Made by a program: the position numbers and the translations under genes. Shown here piece by piece: positions 54,282-58,013 of a DNA stretch of 64,000 bases (positions are counted from its first letter, which is position 1; every line of letters begins with the position of its first letter). Origin of the DNA: Escherichia coli (GTDB lineage Bacteria; Pseudomonadota; Gammaproteobacteria; Enterobacterales; Enterobacteriaceae); the NCBI RefSeq assembly GCF_044324875.1, contig NZ_CP172185.1. One strand, 5' to 3'. The notes below the pieces were generated by a model, which worked only from the letters and a program-made list of their open reading frames with translations, did not search any database and was not told the DNA's origin.

Positions 54282-54674
54282 ATGAAAAAATTCGCAGCAG
54301 TAATCGCAGTAATGGCCCTGTGCAGCGCACCGGTGATGGCAGCAGAGCAGGGCGGTTTTTCTGGCCCATCGGCAACGCAAAGTCAGGCCGGAGGATTCCA
54401 GGGGCCGAACGGCAGCGTAACGACCGTAGAAAGCGCAAAATCCCTGCGTGACGACACCTGGGTAACCCTGCGCGGCAATATCGTTGAACGCATCTCTGAC
54501 GATCTCTACGTGTTCAAAGATGCCAGCGGTACTATCAATGTTGATATCGACCACAAACGCTGGAACGGCGTGACGGTGACGCCGAAAGATACGGTTGAGA
54601 TTCAGGGTGAAGTCGATAAAGACTGGAATTCTGTTGAAATTGACGTCAAACAGATCCGCAAAGTAAATCCGTAA
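54282..54674 (+). CDS. ygiW: Periplasmic OB-fold (BOF family) stress protein
   Basis: 130-aa protein from the ATG at 54282 (SD AAAGGGAG) with signal peptide MKKFAAVIAVMALCSAPVMA. Confidence 0.88.
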   Translation: MKKFAAVIAVMALCSAPVMAAEQGGFSGPSATQSQAGGFQGPNGSVTTVESAKSLRDDTWVTLRGNIVERISDDLYVFKDASGTINVDIDHKRWNGVTVTPKDTVEIQGEVDKDWNSVEIDVKQIRKVNP

Positions 54675-54726
54675 TTGTTACCGCTCCCGGGACACATTCC
54701 CGGGAATAATTTCGCAGGGAGGCAAA

Positions 54727-55209
54727 ATGACAAACCTGACACTGGATGTAAATATTATCGATTTCCCATCAATCCCTGTGGCGATGTTGCCGCACCGCTG
54801 TAGCCCTGAGTTGCTCAACTACAGCGTGGCGAAATTTATCATGTGGCGTAAAGAGACGGGGCTTTCTCCTGTTAACCAAAGCCAGACTTTTGGCGTCGCC
54901 TGGGATGACCCTGCCACCACCGCACCGGAAGCGTTTCGCTTTGATATCTGCGGCAGCGTTAGCGAACCGATCCCCGATAATCGTTATGGTGTGAGTAATG
55001 GTGAACTTACCGGTGGACGTTATGCTGTGGCCCGCCATGTTGGCGAGCTGGACGATATTTCACACACGATATGGGGCATCATTCGCCACTGGCTACCTGC
55101 AAGCGGCGAGAAAATGCGTAAAGCACCGATTCTGTTTCACTACACCAATCTTGCCGAAGGGATGACAGAGCAGCGACTGGAAACAGATGTTTATGTGCCG
55201 TTGGCGTGA
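54727..55209 (+). CDS. ygiV: GyrI-like small-molecule-binding domain protein (AraC effector-domain type)
   Basis: 160-aa ORF with SD GGGAGG. Confidence 0.85.
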   Translation: MTNLTLDVNIIDFPSIPVAMLPHRCSPELLNYSVAKFIMWRKETGLSPVNQSQTFGVAWDDPATTAPEAFRFDICGSVSEPIPDNRYGVSNGELTGGRYAVARHVGELDDISHTIWGIIRHWLPASGEKMRKAPILFHYTNLAEGMTEQRLETDVYVPLA

Positions 55210-55754
55210 TGAAGAATCTTTACCGGAGTGTGAGCCAAATCACTCGCGATAAGTTTGAGCGAATAATGCCACAGGCGTATTGTTGTTGGGCTTATAATTT
55301 CTCCGGTAAGGAATACCATGTATACGCGAAATTTATTATCCGGTGCGCCGTAAGCCGTCTCGAGGGTACCCATGAGCAGGCCGCACTTATGGCAGGAGGC
55401 GCGGGGCACAGGTGGAGACACTGCTAAGCTGGGCTGAACCGTATACTTACAGACGACTACTTTGATGCTTTAGGCTTCCCTGGACTCGCATAACCTCAAC
55501 TTCTCGAATCGCCCGGTGCGGACCCGCATGCCGAGTGGTGTGGCATGGGCGCAACCTTGTGTTGCCCCCTATGCCGATCAAGTCTACAGCAAAGAGTTGT
55601 ATATCAAGACACATTGATGTCTTTATCGCCGTCGGAGCACGTCCGGCGGCGCTATTCACGCTGATCTCCTGTGACTCGACGCGGCAGATAATGTAGTATC
55701 TCCGGCAATATTGCCCCTTTGAAGGCTGGCGAATAAGTTGAGGAATCAGAATTA

Positions 55755-58013
55755 ATGAGCGATATGGCAGAGCGCCTTGCGCTACATGAATTTACGGAAA
55801 ACGCCTACTTAAACTACTCCATGTACGTGATCATGGACCGCGCGTTGCCGTTTATTGGTGATGGTCTGAAACCTGTTCAGCGCCGCATTGTGTATGCGAT
55901 GTCTGAGCTGGGCCTGAATGCCAGCGCCAAATTTAAAAAATCGGCCCGTACCGTCGGTGACGTACTGGGTAAATACCATCCGCACGGCGATAGCGCTTGT
56001 TATGAAGCGATGGTCCTGATGGCGCAGCCGTTCTCTTACCGTTATCCGCTGGTTGATGGTCAGGGGAACTGGGGCGCGCCGGACGATCCGAAATCGTTCG
56101 CAGCAATGCGTTACACCGAATCCCGGTTGTCGAAATATTCCGAGCTGCTATTGAGCGAGCTGGGGCAGGGGACGGCTGACTGGGTGCCAAACTTCGACGG
56201 CACTTTGCAGGAGCCGAAAATGCTACCTGCCCGTCTGCCAAACATTTTGCTTAACGGCACCACCGGTATTGCCGTCGGCATGGCGACCGATATTCCACCG
56301 CATAACCTGCGTGAAGTGGCTCAGGCGGCAATCGCATTAATCGACCAGCCGAAAACCACGCTCGACCAGCTGCTGGATATCGTGCAGGGGCCGGATTATC
56401 CGACTGAAGCGGAAATTATCACTTCGCGCGCCGAGATCCGTAAAATCTACGAGAACGGACGTGGTTCAGTGCGTATGCGCGCGGTTTGGAAGAAAGAAGA
56501 TGGCGCGGTGGTTATCAGCGCATTGCCGCATCAGGTTTCAGGTGCGCGCGTACTGGAGCAAATTGCTGCGCAAATGCGCAACAAAAAGCTGCCGATGGTT
56601 GACGATCTGCGCGATGAATCTGACCACGAGAACCCGACCCGTCTGGTGATTGTGCCGCGTTCCAACCGCGTGGATATGGATCAGGTGATGAACCACCTCT
56701 TCGCAACCACCGATCTGGAAAAGAGCTATCGTATTAACCTCAATATGATCGGTCTGGATGGTCGTCCGGCGGTGAAAAACCTGCTGGAAATCCTCTCCGA
56801 ATGGCTGGTGTTCCGCCGCGATACCGTGCGCCGCCGACTGAACTATCGTCTGGAGAAAGTCCTCAAGCGCCTGCATATCCTCGAAGGTTTGCTGGTGGCG
56901 TTTCTCAATATCGACGAAGTGATTGAGATCATTCGTAATGAAGATGAACCGAAACCGGCGCTGATGTCGCGGTTTGGCCTTACGGAAACCCAGGCGGAAG
57001 CGATCCTCGAACTGAAACTGCGTCATCTTGCCAAACTGGAAGAGATGAAGATTCGCGGTGAGCAGAGTGAGCTGGAAAAAGAGCGCGACCAGTTGCAGGG
57101 CATTTTGGCTTCCGAGCGTAAAATGAATAACCTGCTGAAGAAAGAACTGCAGGCAGACGCGCAAGCCTACGGTGACGAACGTCGTTCGCCGTTGCAGGAA
57201 CGCGAAGAAGCGAAAGCGATGAGCGAGCACGACATGCTGCCGTCTGAACCTGTCACCATTGTGCTGTCGCAGATGGGCTGGGTACGCAGCGCTAAAGGCC
57301 ATGATATCGACGCGCCGGGCCTGAATTATAAAGCGGGCGATAGCTTCAAAGCGGCGGTGAAAGGTAAGAGCAACCAACCGGTAGTGTTTGTTGATTCCAC
57401 CGGTCGTAGCTATGCCATCGACCCGATTACGCTGCCGTCGGCGCGTGGTCAGGGCGAGCCGCTCACCGGCAAATTAACGTTGCCGCCTGGAGCGACCGTT
57501 GACCATATGCTGATGGAAAGCGACGATCAGAAACTGCTGATGGCTTCCGATGCGGGTTACGGTTTCGTCTGCACCTTTAACGATCTGGTAGCGCGTAACC
57601 GTGCAGGTAAGGCTTTGATCACCTTACCGGAAAATGCCCATGTTATGCCGCCGGTGGTGATTGAAGATGCTTCCGATATGCTGCTGGCAATCACTCAGGT
57701 AGGCCGTATGTTGATGTTCCCGGTAAGCGATCTGCCGCAGCTGTCGAAGGGCAAAGGCAACAAGATTATCAACATTCCATCGGCAGAAGCCGCGCGTGGA
57801 GAAGATGGTCTGGCGCAACTGTACGTTCTGCCGCCGCAAAGCACGCTGACCATTCATGTTGGGAAACGCAAAATTAAACTGCGTCCGGAAGAGCTACAGA
57901 AAGTCACTGGCGAACGTGGACGCCGCGGTACGTTGATGCGCGGTTTGCAGCGTATCGATCGTGTTGAGATCGACTCTCCTCGCCGTGCCAGCAGCGGTGA
58001 TAGCGAAGAGTAA
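55755..58013 (+). CDS. parC: DNA topoisomerase IV subunit A
   Basis: 752-aa ORF with the active-site region ...AAMRYTE... Confidence 0.97.

Follow-up and report, generated by a model that had tools for sequence, protein, structure and literature searches.

The ygiV-parC spacer of Escherichia coli as a probable ygiS pseudogene scar holding a decayed group II intron tail

What occupies the interval between ygiV and parC in an Escherichia coli genome that lacks the genes K-12 carries there? In the 64,000-nucleotide stretch of DNA analysed here (assembly GCF_044324875.1, contig NZ_CP172185.1; hereafter the window), ygiW, ygiV, parC and plsC are plus-strand genes, qseC and qseB minus-strand ones, and only 545 bp (55210-55754) separate the stop of ygiV at 55209 from the ATG of parC at 55755. 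Both flanking genes are plus-strand open reading frames, named after their counterparts in identical or near-identical genomes in the case of ygiV (54727-55209, 160 aa) and in matching genomes in the case of parC (55755-58013, 752 aa). An initial annotation had delimited this spacer correctly and stated that mqsR-mqsA and ygiS stand there in K-12. The K-12 derivative CJ236 bears this out, with the order ygiV-mqsR-mqsA-ygiS-parC in one orientation and 2775 bp between ygiV and parC. For the short form the annotation had offered a deletion scar, the ancestral state, a small RNA or the parC promoter. Our analysis indicates that the spacer is in all likelihood the scar of a ygiS pseudogene, in which the body of the gene has been replaced by the decayed tail of a group II intron.

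Composition of the spacer and ancestry of the locus

We dissected the spacer by sensitive blastn against the K-12 locus, with a word size of 7, and then by direct sequence comparison. An alignment with K-12 over the full length of the spacer fails: only 55217-55339 and 55576-55754 find a counterpart by blastn, and the middle 236 bp or so are missing from K-12. Comparison with CFT073, O157:H7 and K-12 identifies the left part (55210-55317, plus strand, like every feature below unless stated) as the 108-bp ygiV-ygiS intergenic region of an allele free of mqsRA. It is followed by the first 22 nt of ygiS (55318-55339; ATG TAT ACG CGA AAT TTA TTA T), identical in K-12, CFT073 and O157. On the other side of the foreign DNA, the last 36 nt of ygiS (nt 1573-1608; 55582-55617, stop codon TGA at 55615-55617) align with K-12, CFT073, O157 and a further five Escherichia records, E. 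albertii and E. whittamii among them, and lead into the 137-bp ygiS-parC intergenic region (55618-55754), whose conservation makes it the presumed site of the parC promoter and 5' UTR. The two remnants, nt 1-22 and 1573-1608, thus keep their order and orientation between ygiV and parC, while nt 23-1572 are gone. Immediately before the second remnant, positions 55579-55581 read CAA, as against TAT in all intact ygiS alleles.

The locus as a whole occurs in three alleles, namely mqsRA together with ygiS, as in K-12; ygiS only, with a 108-bp ygiV-ygiS spacer, as in CFT073 and O157:H7; and the scar. In a collection of 5426 complete E. coli genomes, the full 545-bp spacer, with identical junctions, is found in 1353 (about 25%), the body of ygiS in 4056 and the mqsRA block in only 2299, with at least 99% identity in all of them. 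The window shares with K-12 the flanking genes, the 101 nt upstream of ygiS and the ygiS-parC intergenic region; K-12 differs in having the 927-bp mqsRA block and in keeping ygiS nt 23-1572 intact. In K-12 the 927-bp block (L001 2401-3327) stands in place of a hexamer, GGGAAT or AAGAAT, which occupies 55212-55217 in the window. Compared with CFT073 and O157:H7, the window's 108 bp differ in two bases of this hexamer after the ygiV stop (AAGAAT versus GGGAAT) and in a few scattered substitutions (1-3 across 55214-55339).

Which of these states came first? The order ygiV-ygiS-parC without mqsRA is found in E. albertii, in E. whittamii and in a record labelled E. coli SCPM-O-B-8794, and since these genomes have ygiS and lack mqsRA, the ancestor had ygiS and no mqsRA. 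The scar arose from that state, as did, by later insertion in part of E. coli, the allele with mqsRA. It would be natural to suppose, from K-12, which does carry mqsR, mqsA and ygiS at the locus, that a single deletion from a K-12-like ancestor had removed all three. We regard this as highly improbable. The 108-bp spacer of the window shares its layout with CFT073, O157 and the outgroups, and the word-size-7 blastn against the K-12 locus found nothing from the 927-bp block in the spacer, hence no mqsR or mqsA remnant. Moreover, roughly 1750 genomes have ygiS without mqsRA, and the block is so nearly identical, and confined to so limited a part of the genomes, that it looks recently inserted. 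We conclude that mqsRA was never present in the scar allele. The opposite supposition, that the short spacer is ancestral and ygiS entered other lineages later, has in its favour that the short allele is both widespread (25% of genomes) and old. It has next to no chance of being right, however, given that both ends of ygiS are present, flanking foreign DNA, and that full ygiS stands at the same place in E. albertii, E. whittamii and SCPM-O-B-8794. Of the two readings offered at the outset, then, the deletion scar holds for ygiS, whose 22 nt and 36 nt flank an insert and which is intact in the outgroups, and fails for mqsRA. The ancestral state fails for ygiS and holds for the absence of mqsRA, which CFT073, O157:H7, E. 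albertii and E. whittamii lack as well.

The scar also has one origin, because IAI1 and the window have both of its junctions in common. The decay of ygiS as such has occurred independently at least three times in the genus: besides the scar, two cryptic-clade Escherichia, MOD1-EC7003 and E1V33, have their own internal ygiS deletions with no intron. In MOD1-EC7003 the gene keeps aa 155-227 and 452-535 (L013 6481-7062), and in E1V33 aa 27-86 and 452-535 (L015 3689-4280).

A class C intron fragment and its inferred carrier

The foreign DNA between the two ygiS remnants is the 5'-truncated, 3'-terminal fragment of a class C (IIC) group II intron, some 234-239 nt long (55340-55578), recognised by matches to intron 3' ends. 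Its 236-bp core matches 310 plasmid records, and a search of a phage collection with the same core gave no match. In Polaromonas and Cupriavidus the matches span the 3' end of an annotated ltrA gene and about 85 nt downstream of it. Within E. coli the closest copies (91-92% identity) belong to degenerate introns, found on pHum4b, in a chromosomally integrated plasmid region, and on IncF plasmids a short way upstream of sopA. Two IncF plasmids were examined (L006 1199-1379, 92% identity; L011 3001-3181, 91%), and in them some 150 nt separate the fragment from sopA or a SopA-like ORF downstream. For the 3' half of the core, about 200 E. coli plasmids give matches of about 84% identity.

The 5' part of the fragment encodes what is left of a reverse transcriptase/maturase, its last 50 or so codons (55345-55493), as translation and protein alignment indicate. 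The translation reads ..LEGTHEQAALMAGGAGHRWRHC, a premature TAA (55425-55427), AGLNRILTDDYFDALGFPGLA and then the native TAA (55491-55493), and 26 of 43 residues (60%, E=2e-15) are identical to the C-terminus of the Polaromonas LtrA, itself a bona fide group II RT/maturase (413 bits with TIGR04416, whose cut-off is 300). The ORF in the window is therefore a remnant and not a gene. The initial annotation had seen no recognisable domain in the small ORFs of the spacer; in fact the ORF at 55206-55427, continued in frame to 55493, bears the C-terminus of the maturase. This plus-strand ORF joins intergenic DNA to the maturase relic and is thus chimeric; the small minus-strand ORFs are antisense to the intron relic. 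The ygiS start codon now opens an orphan ORF of 11 codons, MYTRNLLSGAP, that enters the relic and stops at a TAA (55351-55353).

Downstream of the maturase relic lie domain V (55508-55539) and domain VI with the intron 3' end (55542-55578; domain VI proper, 55542-55575). We modelled the two domains by aligning the last 80 nt of nine copies and comparing the pairing with controls in which the partners were slid. In the model 96.6% of cells are paired, compared with 40-52% with slid partners, and four pairs covary. Domain V has 13 pairs; its triad is CGC, with the usual G.U wobble, and its bulge consists of 2 nt (UG). One of its pairs covaries as C-G, U-A and G-C over the nine copies, and there the window and IAI1 have a mismatch, C x A. 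In domain VI three stem pairs carry compensatory changes among the copies (GCAAC/GTTGC, GCAGC/GCTGC, GCGGC/GCCGC). The palindrome GCAAC-CTTGT-GTTGC, which the initial annotation had rightly picked out at 55551-55565, is the distal stem of this domain. A bulged branch-site A lies at 55571, 8 nt from the intron end, and the intron terminates in AU (..GAT, 55576-55578); all copies end ..CTATGCCG(A/T)T, with similarity lost right after. It is in the copies of the window and IAI1 that the unpaired cells of the model cluster, and the relic folds at -33.4 kcal/mol, against -45.7 for a better-preserved copy. These features of domains V and VI agree with the general description of group II introns, in which CGC is a variant triad (PMC4424553).

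How much of an intron is this? The alignment places the start of homology within the maturase ORF, at about 55340-55345, and the relic lacks a 5' GUGYG, domains I-IV and an RT. The absence of the 5' GUGYG and of domains I-IV makes it a fragment rather than a working intron, and with domains I-IV and the RT missing it can neither splice nor move. A GTGCG at 55343 was considered as the 5' end of an intron and dropped, because in the alignment it falls within the maturase ORF. Searches with Rfam agree with the loss and also expose a limit of the models. The D1-D4 models have no match in the window, and the relatives match RF02001; at gathering thresholds the DV-DVI and D1-D4 models miss the 3' ends of the intact relatives too. 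RF00029 (Intron_gpII) gives nothing at E<=10 in the window, and nothing in the intact relatives either, which however were scanned at gathering thresholds only, so that this model appears not to cover the present intron lineage.

The class assignment rests on the sites that the relatives occupy as well as on structure. Insertion after terminators or other stem-loops is a hallmark of class C introns (PMC1702495; PMC4424553). The Cupriavidus intron begins directly after a textbook terminator, GCCCGCTGCGAAGCGGGCTTTTTTT, which runs straight into GTGCG, and the Polaromonas, pHum4b and chromosomal E. coli copies come after a hairpin and AGGATGT, where a tnpB gene or pseudogene ends. In Polaromonas and pHum4b the AGGATGT runs into GTGCG, and Polaromonas has two tandem copies at its site. 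Like B.h.I1 (PMC1702495) and other class C introns, the relic has a CGC-type domain V, a domain VI with the bulged A 8 nt from the ..AU end and a maturase C-terminus without En; its relatives sit after a terminator or stem-loop and occur in tandem, as such introns do. It differs in being only the last 12% or so of an intron and in having lost its own 5' exon. A class D (RmInt1-like) intron had been suspected from many Sinorhizobium plasmid matches, and was dropped since the behaviour of the relatives is that of class C, which is also the class given in the literature.

That published class belongs to the same piece of DNA, and the intron part of the scar is thus already known. Leclercq and Cordaux (2012, PLoS One 7:e52268, PMC3522654; Tables S2 and S3) list E.c.F12 as a 118-bp class C fragment, 79% similar to P.s.I1, orthologous in IAI1, SE11, E24377A, 55989 and several Shigella (B1 strains and Shigella) and lying outside plasmids and islands. 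Its IAI1 coordinates (NC_011741 3251207-3251324) fall in the parC-ygiV spacer, 177-294 nt upstream of parC, which corresponds to 55461-55578 in the window. Locus and DNA are the same, and the published 3' end coincides exactly with the one we infer. What the present analysis adds is, first, that the relic reaches about 120 nt further 5' than the published 118 bp, into the maturase ORF, and second, its setting, since the E.c.F12 tables make no mention of ygiS, an IS remnant or a deletion. The copy in the window is a 4%-diverged variant from a lineage outside the 90 strains of that survey.

Where did the intron come from? CAA also lies directly 3' of the intron in the pHum4b and Polaromonas copies. 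An intron-free IS200/IS605 element of Acidovorax, with tnpA and tnpB, has a right end ..CCGGGAGGATGTCAA, after which comes flanking DNA; its end can also be written ..CCCGGTTCTTCAGGGCCGGGAGGATGTCAA, and similarity stops there. In IS608 the right-end cleavage site is a TCAA 10 nt 3' of a hairpin, and the element inserts 3' of a tetranucleotide with no gain or loss of target (PMC3201880). The intron relatives thus home between GT and CAA, 3 nt from the right end of the IS. The homing site of this class C lineage can be described as 3 nt before the TnpB-element right end (TCAA), just past the right-end hairpin (L005 2377-6091; L004 2412-4221; L018; L019 2560-2620). The right-end region of TnpB elements encodes the guide (omega) RNA of TnpB.

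As for the likeness to this family, the intron relatives occupy the right end of TnpB elements, and without the intron these elements end, as in IS608 (PMC3201880), in a hairpin plus 10 nt closing with ..TCAA. An IS608-type insertion 3' of a tetranucleotide without duplication fits the fact that ygiS resumes directly after CAA, exactly at nt 1573, just past TTAT. From three nucleotides and analogy, the best reading of the CAA at 55579-55581 is that an element of IS200/IS605 type had its right end there, with CAA as its terminal 3 nt. Those three are all that survive of such an element in the window, where tnpA, tnpB, the left end and the hairpin are absent. A search among other copies for the left end of the IS and its target tetranucleotide found no close second copy and located only the hairpin in the Acidovorax element.

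Insertion, deletion and an alternative

The comparisons establish what the spacer is made of, the identity of the intron, the single origin, the ancestral state and the neutral drift; the IS carrier and the order of events we infer as follows. From the ancestral Escherichia order ygiV-ygiS-parC, without mqsRA, an IS200/IS605-family element of the TnpB type would have entered ygiS in one ancestor, between nt 1572 and 1573 and 3' of TTAT, bearing a group II intron of class C at a distance of 3 nt from its own right end. A later single deletion would then have run from ygiS nt 23 into the maturase ORF of the intron, taking 1550 nt of ygiS, the entire body of the IS and about 85% of the intron. 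It would have left behind the two ends of ygiS and, between them, an intron tail of some 239 nt (the maturase C-terminus, domain V and domain VI) followed by CAA from the end of the IS. The relic has since drifted neutrally, and the ygiS leader region, the two hairpins at the stop codon and the region upstream of parC stayed conserved. By analogy with the relatives, an IS insertion followed by one deletion is the most economical history that we can propose.

An intermediate with IS and intron in ygiS was sought with 1.6 kb of the 5' part of the closest intron against the 5426 complete E. coli genomes, and none was found. Near-full intron copies occur in 3 of these genomes, and the one examined sits in an integrated plasmid region, not at parC; no ygiS or parC annotation appears among the matches listed for this search.

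Could the intron have reached ygiS without an IS? A 5'-truncated fragment with a precise 3' end is what one expects of incomplete cDNA, and truncated copies make up the majority of bacterial group II introns (PMC4424553). One might therefore imagine an abortive retrotransposition, in which intron RNA invaded ygiS directly, reverse transcription halted after about 239 nt and the joining of the cDNA deleted 1.5 kb of the target. However, CAA between the intron end and ygiS fits neither of them (ygiS has TAT there), although it fits the native 3' exon of the relatives, that is, the IS right end; moreover, the site has no preceding terminator or hairpin, which class C introns need. We consider this course of events unlikely and prefer insertion of the IS followed by deletion.

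Neutral decay, conserved flanks and the neighbourhood of parC

Do any parts of the scar still serve a function? Between the window and IAI1 the relic differs at 10 of 239 positions (4.2%), and the fourfold sites of ygiW, ygiV and parC at 20 of 527 (3.8%); the relic has thus drifted neutrally since an old split between the window and IAI1 lineages. Nothing in its sequence suggests a function, and the intron relic is apparently non-functional. The flanks have changed less. In the same comparison there is 1 difference in the ygiS leader region (122 nt), and there are 2 in the 176 nt that precede parC. E. coli and E. albertii differ at only 4-6 positions in the last 173 nt upstream of parC (the 36-nt ygiS tail and the 137 bp), as against 9.5% in parC itself.

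Two hairpins at and after the ygiS stop (55606-55651) account for part of this region; they fold at -24.2 kcal/mol (z = -4.5), are conserved across Escherichia and have no U-tract after either. The first (55606-55623), which lies over the ygiS stop codon, is the second palindrome that had been picked out initially, AAGACA-CATTGA-TGTCTT. It has this form in the window alone, a double compensatory change that preserves the stem, and reads AAGGCA-CATTGA-TGCCTT in K-12, CFT073, O157, IAI1 and five other Escherichia records. These two changes are the sole differences between the window and IAI1 within the 176 nt before parC. The second (55627-55651) is a strong, GC-rich stem-loop of 10 bp just past ygiS, in which a T.G wobble of E. 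coli is a T-A pair in E. albertii; it is a candidate either for a stabiliser of the ygiS 3' end or for a part of parC control.

At the other end, the 108-bp ygiV-ygiS region contains a weak terminator-like hairpin (55266-55278). A perfect TATAAT (55293-55298), an AAGGA Shine-Dalgarno sequence and the ygiS ATG are all retained, and promoter activity of ygiS, if any, would now point at parC, 437 nt away. From the pattern of conservation, the conserved parts probably serve ygiV termination, the orphaned expression signals of ygiS, its 3'-end hairpins and parC control. As to the suggestion that the parC promoter lies in the spacer, the strong conservation of about 173 nt before parC fits parC control, although a scan for consensus promoters called none on the plus strand.

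The relic or the orphan ygiS leader might instead have been co-opted, as a small RNA or a cis-regulator of parC. The 101 nt upstream of ygiS, its start codon and its Shine-Dalgarno sequence are retained and well conserved (1 of 122 nt, window versus IAI1), as are the hairpins and the region upstream of parC, one hairpin with a compensatory double change, and transcription from a ygiS promoter, if there is one, would start only 437 nt from parC. The intron piece, however, drifts at the neutral rate and gathers broken pairs. Rfam run on 54600-56000 at permissive E-values returned only a chance snoRNA-like match (E=0.75) and nothing significant in the spacer, and the plus strand has no promoter-like site called. 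Finally, strains whose ygiS is intact conserve the flanks to the same degree, and no new function is required to account for this. We therefore judge co-option to be very improbable, and the small RNA that had been imagined in the spacer finds no evidence, in view of the neutral relic and the lack of an Rfam match. The scar is an ordinary decayed mobile-element remnant inside a dead accessory gene.

What might the loss of ygiS mean for the cell? Both ygiS and mqsRA show accessory-gene behaviour in pan-genome studies. In work cited in PMC6918082, YgiS is reported to promote the import of deoxycholate, a bile salt, and a link to MqsR is disputed. It is possible that the loss of ygiS was adaptive. 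A bolder proposal would be that the loss is recurrent and adaptive, possibly via bile-salt uptake, and that the orphan ygiS promoter may alter the expression of topoisomerase IV in a quarter of E. coli strains; this we put forward as a speculation that is more probably wrong than right by a good distance.

The scar accounts for an unannotated gap of 545 bp that recurs beside an essential gene, in about 25% of the E. coli genomes, with little reach past annotation. It would represent a nested decay of mobile elements in three layers, a gene hit by an IS605-type element that bore a group IIC intron and then by a deletion, and, as the relic is neutral and of single origin, it could serve as a lineage marker. 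More generally, the gene order of K-12 at this locus is the derived state, which corrects the idea that strains with the scar have lost a toxin-antitoxin system.
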